This document shows, piece after piece, positions 373 to 6,658 of a stretch of DNA of 6,658 bases. Origin of the DNA: a virus (Duplodnaviria > Heunggongvirae > Uroviricota > Caudoviricetes); the IMG/VR virus record IMGVR_UViG_3300007790_000263, positions 1-6,658 of that record. One strand, 5' to 3'. The notes beneath the pieces were generated by a model. It made no database searches and was not told the origin of the DNA. It saw only the letters and a program-made list of their open reading frames with translations. The number at the start of each line of letters is the position of its first letter. The first letter of the stretch is position 1. The position numbers were made by a program, and so were the translations under genes.

Positions 373-831
373 ATGAGTACAGAAAACTTACAACCAGAAC
401 ATCGTGATGACGGATTACCCGCTAAAATAGCAGCATTAGCAAGTCTGCAAGCCATAATTGCAAGGATGGCTTCAAATTCACAATTAATGAAAACGTGGGC
501 CATCACTATCGTTACTGGATTCATAGCTATCAAGTCGACTTTTGGTGGACTTGGGTATCTATCTTATCTAGTGCCGATTCTTATTTGCATTTCATTCTCC
601 TTTCTTGACTCTTATTATCTTTCTCAAGAAAAGATATTTAGAGATGTTTATAATAAATTAGCGGCCATTCCCGTTGGGAACGAAATGATGTACCTAGATT
701 TCAAAGGCGAAATATATAAAACTTCACAAGAAGAAAATAATTCATTAATGATTTGTTTCAAGTCCCCATCAATTAGTTTATTTTATATCCCAATGGCAAT
801 CATTTCTACAGTGATATTAATCATAGGATAA
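373..831 (+). CDS. Small membrane protein (152 aa, about three predicted TM helices); candidate effector or partner of the downstream TIR-like protein
   Basis: ORF from the track; GAGGA at 363-367 sits 5 nt before the ATG. Hydrophobic helix-length stretches at about aa 41-57, 59-78 and 133-152 (C-terminal ISLFYIPMAIISTVILIIG). Only 4 nt separate its stop from the next start, implying an operon. AT-rich codon usage matches the neighbouring gene. No family recognised by eye. Confidence 0.65.
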   Translation: MSTENLQPEHRDDGLPAKIAALASLQAIIARMASNSQLMKTWAITIVTGFIAIKSTFGGLGYLSYLVPILICISFSFLDSYYLSQEKIFRDVYNKLAAIPVGNEMMYLDFKGEIYKTSQEENNSLMICFKSPSISLFYIPMAIISTVILIIG

Positions 832-835
832 TATT

Positions 836-1654
836 ATGCTTGTTAAATTCAGAATAGATCGAAATACAATTACAAATAACAGCACAATTTTAAACGCTAA
901 TGACAACCATTTAATTTACTCAAACCTAAATGACACAGATATAAACTCAAAAATATTTGACGCTGTAAATGGTGAAATATCAGCAAAGAAACTAGCCGAC
1001 GAACTATTTCCTGAAAACGAACCACACATTTTTATATCTCATAGTAGCAAAGACGTAAATGTAGCAATAAGTCTAGCAAACACTCTTTATGCAAAATATA
1101 AGATAACATCTTTCATTGACTCCCAACTTTGGGGACATATTGACCACGCACTAAAGGAAATGCATAATCGATACTGCAAGATCCCCGGCTCATCTTATTA
1201 CCACTATGATAAATCTAATAACCTACTATCTCATATGCACGCCATACTAAGTATGGCTTTAATGAGAGTAATGGATAACGCTGACAGCGTTATATTTATC
1301 GAATCCGGCAACTCAATTTACCAATATATGGGAGATACTACCATTGCTCCCCAAGAAGCAATTGAAAAAACATCTGAAACATTATCTCCATGGATATCCT
1401 CTGAGGTGAATTTTGCAAATACCTTAAGATTGAAAGGCCATAAAGATAGAGAACAACCATTAATGGAAAGCACAGATTCATACTCTTTAAACAAGAGTAA
1501 TATTAAAGCAGACTCCTTACCCAAAATAATACATGAAGTCAACTTAAGTAAATTCATAGAGATAGACAACAAAAAATTCAAAGAGTCTTTATCATTAAAT
1601 GAAACAAATCCAATAAAAACTTTAGATATGATTTACCAAATATATGCTCAATAG
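836..1654 (+). CDS. TIR-like domain protein (ThsB-like / DUF1863-type), 272 aa, with N- and C-terminal extensions
   Basis: ORF from the track; AGGA at 823-826 upstream. Residues 64-72 (IFISHSSKD) match the first beta-strand signature of bacterial TIR/ThsB-like domains (compare vFfSfhyqD). TSFIDSQ forms a plausible second strand. SPWISSE (aa 184-190, Glu codon at 1403-1405) resembles the S-x-W-C-x-x-E-l motif that carries the catalytic Glu of TIR NADases. About 60 aa N-terminal and 70 aa C-terminal to the domain have no recognisable family. Confidence 0.7.
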   Translation: MLVKFRIDRNTITNNSTILNANDNHLIYSNLNDTDINSKIFDAVNGEISAKKLADELFPENEPHIFISHSSKDVNVAISLANTLYAKYKITSFIDSQLWGHIDHALKEMHNRYCKIPGSSYYHYDKSNNLLSHMHAILSMALMRVMDNADSVIFIESGNSIYQYMGDTTIAPQEAIEKTSETLSPWISSEVNFANTLRLKGHKDREQPLMESTDSYSLNKSNIKADSLPKIIHEVNLSKFIEIDNKKFKESLSLNETNPIKTLDMIYQIYAQ

Positions 1655-1714: not shown

Positions 1715-1861
1715 AACGAGTCAATTACAATTATTTTATGGCAGGAAAAACTGACGAATCAATATCTGGTTCGGTTGCTGTATCAATACGGTTCAGCAAC
1801 ACCTAATATTTCTTCCATGCCGCCAGCAATGAGGTCTCCTCTGCCGCCACAATACCCAAAT

Positions 1862-2002
1862 CTACGGCATCCTGAAGCGGTGCAATATGCTCACCCTGAT
1901 TTTATCTTCAAAAATCCGGTCGCATCCTGCACAGTTCAACGCATTACGTTGTAGATCGGTATTCTGGTCATTTGTTGATACGCGTACATAGCCAATAAGC
2001 AT
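1862..2002 (-). pseudogene. Truncated serine DNA invertase (Gin/Hin/Pin/Cin family), N-terminal ~35 codons only
   Basis: Minus-strand ATG at 2002-2000 preceded by GGGAG. Codons 1-35 translate to [35 protein letters not shown], which matches the invertase N-terminus including the catalytic-Ser motif YVRVST, as recalled. After codon 35 the frame reads [11 protein letters not shown] and stops at 1862-1864; none of the three frames downstream resembles the rest of an invertase. Intact invertases are about 180-190 aa. Confidence 0.75.
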
Positions 2003-2028: not shown

Positions 2029-2421
2029 ATGATGCCATTTGCTCGTTATTTCTGCATTTTCATAAACGTTGGTTTGGGAGAAGCGGCTAAAAGGAATGTA
2101 GGGACAGGGGCGAATCAGATACCTGATATGGGTAGCTTCACGCTTTCTGTTTCAGGTACTGGATATCAAAAATTACCATCAGGTTTTATTCTTCAGTGGG
2201 GTTCAATCGGCGCACCAGGCATTGCACAGGATGTGGTAACCCATTTTCCGATTGCATTTCCAAACCGATGTCTGCGTGTTTTGGTCTCACAAGACTACAC
2301 ACCAGATAGCGGGGCTGTTGGTTATATTGCCTGCGCAGGTTTTAGTTCCGACCCGGTTAAATTTATATCCAGAGCCGGTACTCCAGGTCTCGGCGCTTCA
2401 TTTTTAGCGTTAGGCTGTTAA
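2029..2421 (+). CDS. Alternative tail-fibre C-terminal variable cassette (promoterless; in frame with the fibre constant region after inversion)
   Basis: ORF from the track. Its ATG at 2029 lies outside the invertible segment and has no proper RBS (AGGA abuts the ATG). From the crossover site at 2057-2082 the frame reads [10 protein letters not shown], with the same frame and GLGE junction as ENLGLGEG in the expressed fibre gene. TAA stop at 2419-2421 is followed by a good RBS and the tfa' start. Confidence 0.6.
2057..2082. other. Left invertase crossover site (hix/gix/pix-like 26-bp site, TTTTCATAAACG-TT-GGTTTGGGAGAA)
   Basis: Inverted relative to the site at 3925-3950: its right half GGTTTGGGAGAA is the exact reverse complement of the left half TTCTCCCAAACC of the other site. 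Has the AAACC-NN-GGTTT core architecture of hixL (TTCTTGAAAACCAAGGTTTTTGATAA, from memory). Lies 55 bp from the invertase start. Confidence 0.75.
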
Positions 2422-2442
2422 TTTAGCTATATGGAGTGAAAA

Positions 2443-2883
2443 ATGAATTACATATATTCCGCGACTACAAACTCTTTCTATCCACTGGAAATGAAAGAGG
2501 ATTACACTCAAGCTGACTCATGGCCAGATGATGCTGTTGAAGTTGATGAGCAGGTGTATATTGAGTTTTCCGGATTACCGCCGGAAGGAAAAATCCGTAT
2601 CGCTGGAGAAAATGGTTTTCCTGCATGGTCTGAAATTCCACCACCAACACCTGAGGAACAGATTGCTGCAGCCGAACTGGAAAAGCAGCAACTGATTAAT
2701 CAGGCCAACGATTATATGAACAGTAAACAATGGCCTGGTAAAGCGGCTATTGGTCGTCTGAAAGGTGAGGAACTGGCGCAATATAATCTGTGGCTGGATT
2801 ATCTGGACGCACTGGAGCTGGTCGATACTTCCAGTGCGCCAGATATTGAATGGCCTACGCCTCCGGCAGTTCAGGCCAGATGA
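2443..2883 (+). CDS. Tail fibre assembly protein, alternative-orientation copy (Tfa' / U'-like), 146 aa
   Basis: ORF from the track; GGAGTG RBS at 2432-2437. C-terminus DIEWPTPPAVQ carries the W-P-x-x-P ending typical of Tfa chaperones and parallels DVIWPELPEA in the convergent tfa. Lies directly downstream of the alternative fibre cassette. Confidence 0.75.
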   Translation: MNYIYSATTNSFYPLEMKEDYTQADSWPDDAVEVDEQVYIEFSGLPPEGKIRIAGENGFPAWSEIPPPTPEEQIAAAELEKQQLINQANDYMNSKQWPGKAAIGRLKGEELAQYNLWLDYLDALELVDTSSAPDIEWPTPPAVQAR

Positions 2884-3457
2884 CATCCGGCGCGGTGCTG
2901 GTATCTGTTGCCGTCACCGCGTCAATGTAATCCAGCACAGCGTTAAGCCGGGTTGTTTCTGCCTGCGTCAGTTTCCGCCCGGCCTGTAATTTCAGCTGAA
3001 TCAGACTAATGGAAGCCATTGCTGCATCAATCAGTGACTGGCGCTGTGCTTCTGCCGCTTCTACTGCGGCACCGTGTTGTGCCTCAGAATCTGTCACCCA
3101 TTTCTCACCATCCCATTTATCATATGTCGTTAACGGGACGATAGTGGTTGTATTTTCAGGGTAATCACCCGGAGCTGTGATTTCTTTTGCTTCTCCTGTT
3201 TCGGTGCTATAGATAATTTCACCGCGATGGTCTGGCATATATTCCCATGAGTTTAAATCTACTGAACGGCAGATTGCATAACCAGCCTTATATGTGCCAG
3301 GAGCATCTAAACAGGAATATGCCGGGATACCGACACCAACGGCAAGATATTCATTTGAAGTGGAAATATATTCCCGTGTTTCACCATCATAGTTATAGAC
3401 GGTAATATTCCCCGCCTTCGTGGCAATAAGTTCGCTATTTAATACGGCTTTATCCAT
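2855..3457 (-). CDS. Tail fibre assembly protein (Tfa / U-like chaperone), 200 aa
   Basis: ORF from the track. Its start overlaps the fibre stop (TAATG at 3455-3459). C-terminal DVIWPELPEA motif. Sits immediately downstream of the tail fibre, in the position of Mu U / P2 G. Confidence 0.8.
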   Translation of the reverse strand: MDKAVLNSELIATKAGNITVYNYDGETREYISTSNEYLAVGVGIPAYSCLDAPGTYKAGYAICRSVDLNSWEYMPDHRGEIIYSTETGEAKEITAPGDYPENTTTIVPLTTYDKWDGEKWVTDSEAQHGAAVEAAEAQRQSLIDAAMASISLIQLKLQAGRKLTQAETTRLNAVLDYIDAVTATDTSTAPDVIWPELPEA

Positions 3458-4275
3458 TATGCAGCTCTCACGATATAGTTAAATGCAATATTTCGTGGAC
3501 GGGTTTCGCTCCCACCTGTGTTACCAATACTCCCTCGTGTATGTAGCGTTGGTGATGGAATCAGAGTTCCTCCGGCATCGGCAGCATCAAGCCCCCGGCC
3601 TTGCGTATATGCTCTTCTGAAGATTGTCGCCAGTTCCCATTCCTCTTTTGAATCATACCCATCGTTGGCAACAACAATATGGCGGTGTTTTTCCAGCATC
3701 CCAGTCTGAATGCTCAATAAAGCACGTCCTGCATCAATACCACGCCCGTCATCCCATCCACGAATAAACTCACCACGGAGATCAGGTAGTTTCCCTGATG
3801 GATATGCTGTAGCAAGATGGGGATATTTCACCTTATCAAAGGCAGCGCCGTTGCATTTCAGCCAGCCCGTTGGCGGGGTTGCGGAGGGCCACGGAACAGG
3901 CACACCAACAGGTAATGCAGAGCCTTCTCCCAAACCAAGGTTTTCGAGAGCCGTTTTCACCGTGCCATCCGATTTGATATCACCAAACGGATTCTTGCGG
4001 CTCAGGTATTCAACAGCAAACCCCGATCCCAGCAATTCAACAAAACCGGGCAGATCACCATTATCAAGCACATCCCGTTGCGTTTTATCACTTACAAACT
4101 GGGCCAGAGCTGCAGCAATAAAGCTGGCCTGCCGAATAACCTTATTGACTTGCGCACTGGAGGCTTTCCCTGCTGTAAATCCGGATAAAAGCGCGGGCAA
4201 CGCTTCCCATTCCTCCTGCGATATAACATTGGCATTTCGATCCGTTGCAAACGCTTTAAAGTCATTTTTCGCCAT
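3457..4275 (-). CDS. Tail fibre protein (constant N-terminal part outside the invertible segment, variable C-terminal tip inside it)
   Basis: ORF from the track (longest form 3457-4293). I prefer the ATG at 4275-4273 (MAKNDFKAF...) because it overlaps the upstream stop as ATGA and has GGGGAG about 10 nt upstream, whereas the 4293 start has AGGAG only 1 nt from the ATG. C-terminus ...[19 protein letters not shown] matches the conserved ending of Tfa-dependent fibres (lambda Stf / T4 gp37 / Mu S type, from memory). The crossover site lies in-frame at ENLGLGEG. Confidence 0.8.
3925..3950. other. Right invertase crossover site (TTCTCCCAAACC-AA-GGTTTTCGAGAG) inside the tail-fibre gene
   Basis: 26-bp site with the AAACC-AA-GGTTT core, close to the hixL consensus. 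Inverted partner of 2057-2082. Falls at about codon 112-118 of the fibre gene, at the constant/variable boundary. Confidence 0.75.
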
Positions 4276-4955
4276 CAGAGTAATACTCCCCATGCTCCTA
4301 CATCAAAACCACTGATGAATTCGTTATCCATATCAAAACCAAAAAATTTTGAGCCTTCCGATGGGGTTTCCACCGAAGGTGTTTCAATGCCACCCGCCCA
4401 TACCCCGGCGGCTTTTACTGTGAGATACCCCTGTTTAATTGCCGCAATTAACTCACGCGATACATCTGAAATATCAGTATCAGGAAAGACCCAGACCGAT
4501 ATCGTCATGTCCTGGTTATCGACTATCTGCATTCGCAGCCCGGATCCTGCTGTTGCAGCGTCAAGAATTGCCGGAAGCGAATCATTCCGTCCATCCCAGT
4601 TATTAATCGCAATCTTCGCTTTAAGAATGACACGATAAGTTTCATCGCTGAGGTACATGTATCCGGAATCAGGATCGTATGGTCCCTGCCATACCCCCTG
4701 ATCATATCCAAGCCCGTCGGTATCCCAGCTGAAATAGACACCTGAGATAGGCTGGCTGACAACACGGCTACGTCCGATCCACAATCCCAGAATGTCAAGT
4801 TGCACACCAACCGCAGAGTCAATATCAAATGCAGTAATCAGCCCTCTGGTGGCAGCCGCAACATCAATAAGCGGCCGGGTCATCAGATCAACATGCGCAA
4901 GAAATTTAGGTTTGGTGGCGTGGTAGTTCGTGATTAGTTCGGTGTATTTGCTCAT
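4275..4955 (-). CDS. Phage baseplate/tail protein at the gpI position (226 aa)
   Basis: ORF from the track; GGTGGAG RBS upstream. ATGA overlap with the J-like gene upstream and with the fibre gene downstream. Function is assigned from its position in the V-W-J-I-H-G order; I do not recognise the sequence confidently. Confidence 0.65.
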
Positions 4956-6151
4956 GACTCCACCGTTATAACGATATTTTCCGGGGTACAGGACGCAGAT
5001 TCGTTGTATCTGATATCAATGTTTGATGACGACAAAACCCCCGGGGATTTCCCAATCGTCAGTTCCTGAATATCGTAATAGCGTGCATTCCCGCCACTCA
5101 CCACGCCAAGATTCGCCGGTGAGTAAATGCGACTTAAAAGGACCGAATCACCAATCGTCAGACTATTGATATAGTCGGAAATAGCCTGCTGGATCTGCTG
5201 CCCTATCTGTGAGGTATAACCCGTAAAAACTTTTAATTTAATCAGGGCATAAACAGGCACATCACTGGAACGCGAGAATTTGATTACATGGGGATTGCCG
5301 TATTTATCCGGAACCGTAACGGATGTTGTACCGTGAGTGGCTGTCCCCTGGCCTTTATTCCCTCTGATAGCCTGAGCAATATCCGTCACATCACCGCCAT
5401 CCACAATTACAGCAACAGAGTGTGGCGGTAACCCGTTACCGTCCTCCGAACCAGTATCGTTTTCATAGAGTTTGTGGCGGGTTACACCGGTAACATTAGA
5501 AACAGCACCATCCAGTGCTTCAAATGGGGTTATTGATGGCAACGCAACACTTTGCGACTGGCGGATACGTAACTCAGCGTCAGTTTCTGCCGGAGTGCCC
5601 ACAGTAGCCGCAGCAGGATTAGTTACCGAAACCCAGCCACGGGTTGGCGTATTAATTTCAGTGATAGTTCCAGCCAGCGCCGCCACTGCACCACTGACGG
5701 AACATGTTGCGGTCACCATCACTGTACCATCCACGCCGACCACCACTGAAGCAGGCAAACGCCATATCACATTATTACTGTCTTTCACGCTGCCATTAAT
5801 GATGGTTGTTCCGGCAGTTCCTGTAAGAAGCAAATCAACCGTAGAATTCGTCGCGCCTTTACGTGAAATACCATTTATTTTCACGTTACTGGTCAGTGCG
5901 GCTCCATAGCCGGTTGCTGGTGAAAAACAGTTGTAGACAGTTATCGCCATATTATTGGCATCATGAATCGCCAGCGCCATCAGAGCCACCATCTGGCCGT
6001 CTTTGCTGTCCGGTTCGAGGTAGGCATCACTGCCATAAATCTGCTGAAAATAGCTAATCAGGGTGCTGAGTATCGTCTGATAATCAGGCGCACTGATCCC
6101 CTCTGCGGTTACCTTTGCAGATAAACCGAGAGAATCAAGGTTCAGAGCCAT
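4952..6151 (-). CDS. Baseplate J-like protein (399 aa)
   Basis: ORF from the track; GGAGG RBS 4 nt before the ATG. TAATG overlap with the upstream gene. Internal PAETDAELRIRQ resembles the E-[ST]-D-x-x-L-R motif I associate with Baseplate_J proteins. Size and position fit P2 gpJ / Mu gp47-like proteins. Confidence 0.7.
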   Translation of the reverse strand: MALNLDSLGLSAKVTAEGISAPDYQTILSTLISYFQQIYGSDAYLEPDSKDGQMVALMALAIHDANNMAITVYNCFSPATGYGAALTSNVKINGISRKGATNSTVDLLLTGTAGTTIINGSVKDSNNVIWRLPASVVVGVDGTVMVTATCSVSGAVAALAGTITEINTPTRGWVSVTNPAAATVGTPAETDAELRIRQSQSVALPSITPFEALDGAVSNVTGVTRHKLYENDTGSEDGNGLPPHSVAVIVDGGDVTDIAQAIRGNKGQGTATHGTTSVTVPDKYGNPHVIKFSRSSDVPVYALIKLKVFTGYTSQIGQQIQQAISDYINSLTIGDSVLLSRIYSPANLGVVSGGNARYYDIQELTIGKSPGVLSSSNIDIRYNESASCTPENIVITVES

Positions 6152-6504
6152 TACGCCTCCGATGTAACAGTCGTTATTCCATAGAGAGTGTCGATTTCAG
6201 TGGAAAACCTGACACGTCGGGTCGTGGTATCCACCGTAGTATTGAAAGAGAGGATTGATTTAACGCCCCGCGTTTCGAGGATGCGCTTACGGATCGCCAG
6301 GTTGTAGGTTTCCGGCTTCTGCTTACCGAGTACGGACTGGATCCACGGAGTCCCCTCGGTGGTGTCGAGAAACCATTGCCCATACCACAATTCGAATCGC
6401 GTTTTTACCGCCTGCGCCACGGCCTCCGGTGAGTTAATCAGCCAGGTGTCATCACCGCTGCCAAAGGTGTAATCGCCATCGGCGTCTTCACGTCTGTATC
6501 GCAT
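6151..6504 (-). CDS. Small baseplate protein at the gpW / gp25 position (117 aa)
   Basis: ORF from the track. ATGA overlap with the upstream spike gene and TAATG overlap with the J-like gene. Size matches the small wedge subunit class (P2 gpW is ~115 aa). Family assigned by position and size only. Confidence 0.6.
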   Translation of the reverse strand: MRYRREDADGDYTFGSGDDTWLINSPEAVAQAVKTRFELWYGQWFLDTTEGTPWIQSVLGKQKPETYNLAIRKRILETRGVKSILSFNTTVDTTTRRVRFSTEIDTLYGITTVTSEA

Positions 6505-6658
6505 CAGTTTACCCCATCGGTATTGCTTCCACCGCGCTGAACACCGCCATGAGTGTGCGTATCATCGATTGGCTTGCCGTTAGCCTTAACGCTCCCCAAG
6601 AACTCAACAGCACCAGTGATTTTTGAAGCCACACCAGAAACAACAGACCCCACCATGC
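6504..6658 (-). CDS. Partial CDS (C-terminal 50 codons; N-terminus beyond the window): candidate baseplate central spike, gpV-like
   Basis: My manual minus-strand translation of 6656-6507 gives an open frame ...MVGSVVSGVASKITGAVEFLGSVKANGKPIDDTHTHGGVQRGGSNTDGVN, ending at TGA 6506-6504, which overlaps the next start as ATGA. The HxH motif (THTH) near the C-terminus is consistent with the His-coordinated metal site at the tip of P2 gpV-type spikes. Not in the supplied ORF track because it runs off the window edge. Confidence 0.5.
   Translation of the reverse strand, partial: MVGSVVSGVASKITGAVEFLGSVKANGKPIDDTHTHGGVQRGGSNTDGVN

Follow-up and report, generated by a model that had tools for sequence, protein, structure and literature searches.

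Two unrelated fiber tips share one invertible segment

We found that the two alternative tips encoded at this tail-fiber locus belong to unrelated protein families and, by homology, have different receptor-binding folds. The locus lies in the window (the whole 6,658-nucleotide stretch of viral DNA analyzed here), and the region is very likely an e14-type invertible tail-fiber segment, of the P- or G-segment type, in an E. coli prophage whose baseplate module is of the contractile-tail kind. Pfam assigned the tip now in the expressed position to Collar (PF07484) and the tip now in the silent position to Gp53-like_C (PF21882), and their C-terminal motifs differ, with an 11-residue ending on the Collar tip and W/F-x-A-I/L-G-x on the other. 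BLASTP of one tip against the other gave nothing significant (best E=0.016 over 16 residues), and hhalign of the two tip family alignments aligned only NLGLGE in the crossover region. A link between the tips through the weak BLASTP match was considered and rejected on this profile-profile comparison. Together with Pfam, PDB relatives, and Foldseek, these findings bear out a proposal in the first-pass annotation that the silent cassette has a different receptor-binding fold. Pairing of unrelated tips is already known, both from e14 of E. coli K-12 and from RefSeq annotation.

Organization of the window and the crossover sites

The invertible segment is bounded by two inverted 26-bp hix/gix-like sites (Table 1). 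An inverted repeat at 2064-2083 and 3924-3943, matching at 19 of 20 positions, forms part of both sites, and each site has the inner half-site TTCTCCCAAACC and a 2-bp AA/TT core, as expected for the Pin/Gin/Cin/Hin type. The right site sits within the fiber reading frame (...ENLGLGE...), leaving the constant part of the fiber outside the segment, where it is joined to either tip. Columns 1 to 196 of the fiber alignment are almost invariant. The fiber reading frame (3457-4293, minus strand) encodes 278 amino acids if an upstream ATG at 4293 is used, and the likely real start is at 4275 (272 amino acids), which matches the RefSeq start in a sister strain and creates an ATGA overlap with a DUF2612 gene. 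The baseplate genes upstream are intact. Because the crossover site bounds the segment, the silent cassette truly starts at about 2071 rather than at the ATG at 2029, and a short fixed leader supplies this ATG. The two chaperone genes, tfa' and tfa, overlap at their 3' ends.

Table 1. Features of the invertible tail-fiber segment and its borders in the window
Feature	Positions	Strand	Description	Basis
pin invertase remnant	1898..2002	-	First 35 codons only	Resolvase N-terminal Pfam match, translation, RefSeq pseudogene in sister strain
Short fixed leader	2029..2070	+	14 residues; supplies ATG to silent cassette	ORF list
Left crossover site	2057..2082		Reverse complement TTCTCCCAAACC-AA-CGTTTATGAAAA; core TT at 2069-2070	
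Alternative tip cassette, now in silent position	2071..2421	+	Gp53-like_C foot	PF21882, PDB relatives, AF2/Foldseek
tfa'	2443..2883	+	146 aa; assembly chaperone for gp53-like tip, TfaP-like	Caudo_TAP, K-12 TfaP
tfa	2855..3457	-	200 aa; assembly chaperone for Collar-type tip, TfaE orthologue	Caudo_TAP, K-12 TfaE
Variable tip, now in expressed position	3457..3936	-	Collar-type	Pfam, PDB relatives, K-12 StfE
Right crossover site	3925..3950		TTCTCCCAAACC-AA-GGTTTTCGAGAG; core AA at 3937-3938	Inverted repeat, site sequence
Constant N-terminal part of tail-fiber gene	3951..4275	-	About 116-122 aa	ORF list, RefSeq start, fiber alignment

Both orientations of the segment occur in nature

Inversion of the segment in silico produced an in-frame fiber of 235/229 amino acids identical to the gp53-like protein that RefSeq annotates in E. 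coli strain P4 (WP_112045469). In both orientations, a full-length in-frame fiber is followed by its own tfa gene, again as expected for a segment of the Pin/Gin/Cin/Hin type. A base-by-base comparison of P4 with the window revealed two SNPs, both outside the segment, with the segment flipped and the cassette forming the annotated 229-amino-acid fiber. Strains P4, FP4, and KOr019 all have flanks 99.6-100% identical to those of the window, a flipped segment, and the gp53-like tip in the expressed fiber. In flipped P4, the flank keeps the sole mismatched repeat position (2068/3939), which is what strand exchange at the core dinucleotide would predict. Both orientations were also present in a set of 80 IMG/VR loci that carry a related gp53-like cassette: 15 have the gp53 tip in the expressed position and 18 have it in the silent one. 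The tip pairing is not unusual: the same Collar/gp53-like pair is present in K-12 e14 and in 41 of these 80 loci. Another 14 loci pair gp53 with gp53, and gp53-like fused proteins of about 206 amino acids occur on many contigs.

We did not find an intact serine invertase gene beside the segment. Homology to intact pinE ends at about 1897, whereas relatives have an intact 184-amino-acid pinE at the same place. Because the adjoining invertase gene is a 35-codon stump, the locus cannot flip alone. Since the segment has flipped nonetheless, another invertase, encoded elsewhere, probably acted in trans in the lineage of the window. The locus is thus a Pin/Gin/Cin/Hin-type invertible segment by descent that depends on an invertase in trans. 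The e14 P segment is inverted by PinE, PinQ, and PinR alike (PMC12529663). The Fis-dependent recombinational enhancer of the hin system spans 65 bp and is located at a distance of about 100 bp from one hix site (PMC3798978). Because pin-derived DNA is retained in the window to ~172 bp from the core, an equivalent of this enhancer could just be retained.

The silent cassette encodes an intact gp53/R-pyocin-foot domain

The silent cassette encodes a complete, intact lectin-type domain of the gp53/R-pyocin-foot kind. Gp53-like_C was matched with E=9.5e-16 and 58.5 bits (cutoff, 24.9) over profile positions 1 to 84 of 84, and the PDB relatives found by sequence were 9zd7, 4mtm, 6ct8, 6cl6, and 6cxb. 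Structure prediction, which the first-pass annotation had suggested for both tips, gave for this one a single-chain AF2 model of moderate quality (pLDDT 64). The top five Foldseek matches to the model were 6cxb, 6cl5, 4mtm, 6cl6, and 6ct8, which are R1/R2 pyocin fibers and AP22 gp53 (probability 1.0; TM 0.44-0.54). Snail agglutinin lectins ranked next, as published for the gp53/pyocin-foot fold. The solved relatives have an 8-stranded lectin jellyroll foot, and in R-pyocins this jellyroll is the proposed sugar-binding part of the fiber (PMC6363177).

The reading frames confirmed that the two tips end differently, the expressed one with the 19-residue ending reported in the first-pass annotation and the silent one without that motif, ending in FLALGC and containing three Cys. 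However, neither feature of the silent tip is an oddity. FLALGC is the normal C-terminal motif of its family in the family alignment. The Cys are residues 70, 91, and 119 of the 119-amino-acid translation of 2062-2421; 20 of 27 family members have a Cys at the position of Cys70, the R2 pyocin fiber also has a Cys in the neighboring FPxxFP..C stretch, and half of the AP22 gp53 homologues have a Cys at one pocket position.

We compared related sequences by dN/dS, as had been proposed, and for stop codons, and observed purifying selection with no stops in either tip or either tfa gene. For the silent cassette, 0 of 33 DNA variants contained a stop codon, and dN/dS ranged from 0.03 to 0.33, being about 0.15 (about 0.16 at dS of about 0.85). 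These values are as low as those in the Collar tip (0.11-0.14) and are accompanied by values of 0.15-0.27 for tfa and 0.04-0.37 for tfa'.

The expressed tip and the two Tfa chaperones

By homology to proteins of solved structure, the expressed tip is assigned as a Collar/gp37-type fiber tip. It matched the Collar profile (E=2.5e-14), the T4 gp37 tip 2xgf (E=7e-21, with the C-terminal motif covered), and the short tail fiber 9cuy (E=2e-15). Residues 112-209 and 255-278 of the fiber align to 2xgf. In the tip, a Collar domain is followed by a variable middle, where an HxH motif (H203 and H205) occurs, and by the closing C-terminal strand NIAFNYIVR; the Collar domain and this strand together mark the Collar/gp37 type. 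Its fold rests on these homologies because an AF2 monomer model of the whole expressed fiber was unusable (pLDDT 37). The first-pass annotation had described the ending of this tip as the conserved ending of Tfa-dependent fibers. Our analysis instead identifies it as the closing strand of a Collar/gp37-type tip, and Mu S, the structurally studied Tfa-dependent fiber, ends otherwise. R-pyocin foot fibers, which are relatives of the silent tip, also need and copurify with their chaperone (PMC6363177).

Both Tfa proteins match Caudo_TAP (PF02413), tfa with E=4e-32 and tfa' with E=6e-38 over profile positions 2 to 130 of 131. The tfa' gene is intact, as had been suggested. Identity to K-12 TfaE is 90% for tfa, and identity to K-12 TfaP is 60% over amino acids 51-146 for tfa'. 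Only the C-terminal 68 amino acids are common to the two proteins (38% identity), and their N-terminal domains are unrelated. This pattern agrees with the published modular model of Tfa, in which a variable N-terminal domain binds the fiber and a conserved C-terminal domain trimerizes (as summarized in PMC9608196). Tip subtype and Tfa type change together across loci, and we infer that each Tfa serves only its neighboring tip.

Comparison with known systems

The closest system is the P segment of the K-12 cryptic prophage e14 (stfP-tfaP / tfaE-stfE, pinE), in which the gene order and the crossover core TTGGTTTGGGAGAAG are identical to those of the window. As in the window, one e14 tip is of the Gp53-like_C family (StfP) and the other of the Collar family (StfE), and a short leader lies next to pin; StfE carries the same type of leader. 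The Collar tip of the window is 58% identical to StfE, whereas identity between the gp53-like tip and its counterpart in StfP is only 27%. The constant part and baseplate genes also differ (DUF2612 in the window; DUF2313 YmfQ in e14), pin is truncated in the window, unlike in e14, and the orientation of the window is opposite to that of the K-12 reference.

The G segment of Mu (S/U, S'/U', and gin) and its homologue in P1, the C segment, share their mechanism with the window, with a serine invertase and crossover sites within the fiber gene. In these systems too, the N-terminal part of the fiber is constant, and either of two tips, each with a Caudo_TAP chaperone of its own, follows it. In Mu, however, the C-terminal domains of S and S' are homologous (E=1e-8 by phmmer) and both proteins end in INGTWYN, upholding the first-pass statement that the Mu tips are of one family. 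The contrast with the unrelated tips of the window is therefore real. The Mu tips are neither Collar nor gp53-like but belong to a third family. A reading in which the Mu tips are unrelated too, based on BLASTP of S against S' that matched the crossover region only, was dropped when phmmer against PDB chains detected the shared C-terminal domain.

Relatives of the silent tip in both sequence and fold are the C-terminal domain of AP22 gp53 and the R1/R2 pyocin foot (4mtm, 6cl5, 6cl6, 6ct8, and 6cxb), with the common motifs LPxGxIxQWG and FPxxFPxxC and identity of only about 24%. In these relatives, a lectin-type jellyroll stands at the very end of a trimeric fiber, to which we liken the silent tip, and the chaperone coexpressed with pyocin fibers has its counterpart in Tfa'. 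Unlike in AP22 and the pyocins, the gp53-like domain of the window is on a very short fiber (about 230 amino acids) and makes up one of the two alternatives in an inversion switch. T4 gp37 (2xgf) and gp12 resemble the expressed tip in building the collar out of two stretches, a segment that precedes the distal part and a C-terminal strand, with HxH following the collar. The distal part of the expressed tip has only about 65 residues, in contrast to the long iron-binding needle of gp37, and its chaperone is a Caudo_TAP Tfa, whereas T4 uses gp38/gp57A.

Proposed mechanism and significance

We propose that a serine invertase of the Pin/Gin/Hin group would exchange strands at the 2-bp cores (2069-70 and 3937-38) of the inverted 26-bp sites. 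With each flip, one of the two C-terminal tips would be fused to the fixed N-terminal part of the fiber (about 120 amino acids, for attachment to the baseplate), and the tfa gene of that tip would come to lie downstream of it. The orientation in the window would produce a fiber with the Collar/gp37-type tip and the 200-amino-acid Tfa, and the flipped orientation would produce a fiber with the lectin-fold gp53-like foot, as at the ends of R-pyocin fibers, and the 146-amino-acid Tfa'. The common C-terminal domain of the two Tfa proteins would trimerize, with their unrelated N-terminal domains fitting the unrelated tips. The two tips probably bind different receptors, and the putative target of the lectin-type foot is LPS or other surface sugars.

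These findings indicate that inversion switches of this type swap whole receptor-binding modules (a tip and its matched chaperone) from unrelated families, beyond diverged copies of one tip, and that an inversion segment can remain active after losing its own invertase gene. Such a module swap is useful background for predicting the host range of prophages and tailocins and for fiber engineering, with little import beyond correct annotation. Reading frames such as 2029-2421 should be annotated as switch cassettes and not as free-standing genes or pseudogenes.

Alternative explanations

The tips could instead be very distant members of one family, as are Mu S and S', that have diverged past easy recognition. 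Both are trimeric fiber tips with Caudo_TAP chaperones, a weak 16-residue match was obtained, and the kinship of the Mu C termini was missed by plain BLASTP and found by phmmer. Yet the hhalign comparison aligned only the crossover region, the C-terminal motifs differ, and the solved relatives have distinct architectures, with a collar to which the chain returns at the C terminus in gp37 and a jellyroll in the pyocin foot. Common descent of the tips therefore seems very improbable. A second alternative, raised in the first-pass annotation, is that the silent cassette is a decaying pseudogene remnant without a working tip product. It lacks the Collar-tip ending, occupies a nonexpressed position next to a truncated invertase gene, and has a frameshifted copy in one related locus. 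Against decay, the cassette retains a complete Pfam domain and the end motif of its family, is free of stops with dN/dS as low as in the expressed tip, and forms the expressed fiber in P4, FP4, KOr019, and the 15 IMG/VR loci noted above, in addition to the fused proteins of about 206 amino acids. We consider a degraded cassette highly unlikely and an intact alternative tip the better account.

A third explanation, which is compatible with an invertible pair of unrelated tips, is that the prophage is a domesticated remnant in which the 130-amino-acid reading frame formed by the leader and cassette is made alone. In RefSeq, this product bears the name gp53-like domain-containing protein. It corresponds to StfE2 in K-12 e14, and its exact sequence occurs on 58 contigs. 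According to a published report, StfE2 blocks T2 phage adsorption once PinQ has inverted the segment (PMC12529663), and the orientation of the window is the one that gives StfE2 and StfP2 in e14. The reading frame has its own ATG, the segment still flips with pin dead, and a ThsB-like/PDC-M50A defense cargo adjoins. However, we scanned upstream of the reading frame for a sigma-70-like promoter and found none, and the overlap of the leader with the crossover site and the 5' region of pin could account for its conservation without any protein function. In addition, the intact upstream baseplate genes match what a working tail module would have, the StfE2 result came from plasmid overexpression in another strain, and dN/dS cannot distinguish a free protein from use as a fiber tip. 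Overall, independent production of the reading frame appears unlikely. It is similarly doubtful, although conceivable, that the product would act as a free gp53-like lectin masking surface receptors against other phages, with the dead-pin locus kept by the host as a switch driven by the invertases of other prophages beside the ThsB-like/PDC-M50A cassette.

As a separate observation, the two low-GC genes to the left of pin contained no Pfam domain and were matched by PADLOC.

A Collar tip and a gp53-like tip share one fibre switch

Both tip endings quoted in the first-pass annotation are present in the sequence, and its view that the two tips are unrelated was borne out, as they belong to different Pfam families (Collar and Gp53-like_C) with no detectable mutual similarity. 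BLASTP between the two variable parts returned only a 16-residue match (E=0.016), and a profile-profile comparison of the two tip-family alignments aligned only the crossover-encoded NLGLGE region. The expressed tip, joined to the constant fibre part in the window orientation, contains a Collar domain (PF07484, E=2.5e-14) and matched the solved T4 gp37 tip (2xgf, E=7e-21) both in the collar (residues 112-209) and, separately, over the final 24 residues including NIAFNYIVR. Further matches were to the short tail fibre 9cuy (E=2e-15) and T4 gp12. Since an AF2 monomer model of the expressed fibre was unusable (pLDDT 37), its fold rests on homology. When 25 relatives were aligned, this fibre was nearly invariant over residues 1-196 and 263-278, and the stretch between residues 196 and 263 was variable except for an HxH motif, a pattern that would be expected for a receptor-contacting part.

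The contrast drawn earlier with phage Mu was fair: the middle parts of S and S' fall into different Pfam families, but the two proteins have a common C-terminal domain (phmmer E=1e-8). Because they also share the ending INGTWYN, the ending of the expressed tip is not the general mark of Tfa-dependent fibres that it had been taken for; it is a feature of the Collar/gp37-type tip.

The second cassette encodes a gp53-like tip

We placed the true start of the second, silent cassette at the crossover site rather than at the ATG at 2029, from which the first 14 codons form a fixed leader. The cassette proper, with three Cys, matched the whole Gp53-like_C profile (PF21882, positions 1-84 of 84, E=9.5e-16). 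Sequence matches to structure chains (E=2e-4 to 8e-3) were the short tail fibre 9zd7, AP22 gp53 (4mtm), and R1/R2 pyocin fibres (6ct8, 6cl6, 6cxb, and 6cl5). The AF2 model was of moderate quality (pLDDT 64); its top five Foldseek matches were again AP22 gp53 and R1/R2 pyocin fibres (probability 1.0, TM 0.44-0.54), with snail agglutinins next. In the literature, the AP22 gp53/R-pyocin domain is the distal "foot" of the trimeric fibre, an eight-stranded jellyroll of the lectin type that is the proposed sugar/LPS-binding part and structurally resembles Helix pomatia agglutinin; pyocin fibre fragments required co-expressed chaperones, with which they co-purified (PMC6363177; bioRxiv 10.1101/518761).

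These matches support the earlier suggestion of a different receptor-binding fold over its alternative, a degraded cassette. The C-terminus is a normal family motif (FLALGC in the window, WIAIGY in K-12 StfP). Cys, which had been noted as an oddity, is the majority residue after FPxAFPNR (20/27 in the family alignment), occurs in the FPxxFP..C stretch of the R2 pyocin fibre, and occupies one pocket position in half of the AP22 gp53 homologues. Ungapped cassette copies at least 70% identical occurred at 38 IMG/VR loci and comprised 33 distinct DNA sequences, none of which contained a stop codon (0/33). The dN/dS of the cassette relative to the window was 0.03-0.33 overall, and among its most diverged copies (six, with dS ~0.85) it was 0.15-0.17, in comparison with 0.11-0.14 for the Collar tip, 0.04-0.37 for tfa', and 0.15-0.27 for tfa. 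With an intact motif, no stops, low dN/dS, and an annotated fibre in the flipped strain P4, the degraded-cassette reading was dropped.

On 58 contigs, annotation treats the 130-aa ORF comprising the leader and gp53-like cassette as a stand-alone protein. This ORF is the counterpart of StfE2 of the K-12 prophage e14, which, when produced, was reported to block T2 adsorption (PMC12529663). The window orientation corresponds to the e14 state yielding StfE2. Because a promoter scan of the window found no sigma-70-like site upstream of this ORF, an StfE2-like stand-alone role would have a low probability.

Switches of this family commonly pair unrelated tips

The implied unusualness of the pairing did not hold. 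The nearest known system, the P segment of cryptic prophage e14 of E. coli K-12, has the same pairing (Gp53-like_C in StfP and Collar in StfE) and the same crossover sequence. Identity between e14 and the window was 90% for TfaE and Tfa, 58% for the Collar tips, 60% over the C-terminal two thirds for TfaP and Tfa', and 27% for the gp53-like tips. In 80 IMG/VR loci carrying a related gp53-like cassette, the inverted partner was a Collar tip in 41, with the gp53-like tip adjoining the constant part in 15 and pin in 18; 14 of the 80 carried two gp53-like tips. Unrelated tips are therefore the common state, and the window holds a switch of an already known type in a frequent configuration, with parts already named in RefSeq. 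A 2025 paper (PMC12529663) had already noted that the StfP-derived tip contains a gp53-like domain related to pyocins.

Several loci (L044, L046, L048-L053, L055, L076, and others) contain two or three gp53-like cassettes without a Collar/gp53 pair, and the P1-like Cronobacter phage JK004 matches at five places, which suggests that multi-cassette, shufflon-like versions exist.

Inversion in a lineage with a truncated pin

The ORF list and Pfam matches identified a contractile-tail baseplate block on the minus strand.

Features of the window and its invertible segment
Feature	Position	Strand	Remark
Two genes in low-GC (28-37%) DNA	373-1654	+	left of tfa remnant, adjoining truncated pin
tfa C-terminal remnant with internal stop	1731-1892	-	adjoins pin stump
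Serine invertase (pin) stump	1898-2002	-	35 codons; left of segment
Leader and gp53-like ORF	2029-2421	+	convergent with minus-strand block
Left crossover site	2057-2082		as reverse complement: TTCTCCCAAACC-AA-CGTTTATGAAAA
Second tfa (tfa')	2443-2883	+	convergent with minus-strand block
tfa	2855-3457	-	
Short tail-fibre gene	3457-4293	-	likely start 4275
Right crossover site	3925-3950		TTCTCCCAAACC-AA-GGTTTTCGAGAG
DUF2612 protein	4275-4955	-	
Baseplate J	4952-6151	-	
gpW-like gene	6151-6504	-	
Spike fragment	6504-6656	-	

An inverted repeat with 19/20 matching positions (2064-2083 / 3924-3943) belongs to a pair of 26-bp hix/gix/pix-type sites. The complete genome of E. coli P4 differs from the window by 2 SNPs and the flipped segment and is otherwise identical, and flipping the window in silico produced an in-frame fibre equal to the annotated 229-aa "gp53-like domain-containing protein" of P4. 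The sole mismatch between the repeat arms (2068/3939) remains with the flank in P4; strand exchange therefore occurred inward of it, in keeping with cleavage at the central dinucleotide. Every flip joins the ~120-aa constant part to one tip and places the tfa of that tip behind it.

The pin gene is cut after codon 35, with homology to intact pinE stopping at about 1897. The segment nevertheless lies in another orientation in the near-identical strains P4, FP4, and KOr019 than in the window, which implies that an invertase supplied in trans probably catalysed inversion after pin was truncated. Inversion in trans is documented in e14 for PinQ and PinR (PMC12529663). About 172 bp of pin-side DNA is retained beside the left crossover site. 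In hin, the distance between a hix site and the 65-bp Fis-dependent enhancer is about 100 bp (PMC3798978), so the retained span would roughly equal that housing the enhancer, and the deletion may have stopped just short of a cis-required element (candidate stretch, 1898-1970).

Within the low-GC cassette, a 272-aa protein (836-1654) matched PADLOC ThsB-type TIR-like models (E=7.7e-43), with a weak Pfam TIR_2 match (E=0.02), and a 152-aa protein (373-831) matched the PADLOC candidate family PDC-M50A (E=3.7e-26); ThsA was absent from the window. Another strain (L002) carries an FRG-domain protein, an AAA ATPase, and an HNH endonuclease at the same position, beside an intact pinE, so this prophage end looks like a variable defence-cargo spot.

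Each tip is paired with its own chaperone type

Both Tfa proteins matched Caudo_TAP. The alignment between them was confined to the last 68 residues (38% identity), and their N-terminal parts (about 130 aa in Tfa and 75 aa in Tfa') are unrelated. This arrangement fits the published modular model (North et al. 2019, summarised in PMC9608196), in which fibre-tip binding falls to a variable N-terminal domain and trimerisation is driven by a conserved helical domain at the C-terminus. Tip subtype and adjoining Tfa type covary across related loci, and Caudo_TAP chaperones serve at least three tip families: Mu-type, Collar-type, and gp53-like. The 3' ends of the convergent tfa genes overlap by 29 bp (2855-2883), and the stretches coding for their conserved C-termini make up imperfect inverted repeats (e.g., 2793-2810 / 2919-2936) that could be a substrate for recombination between cassettes.
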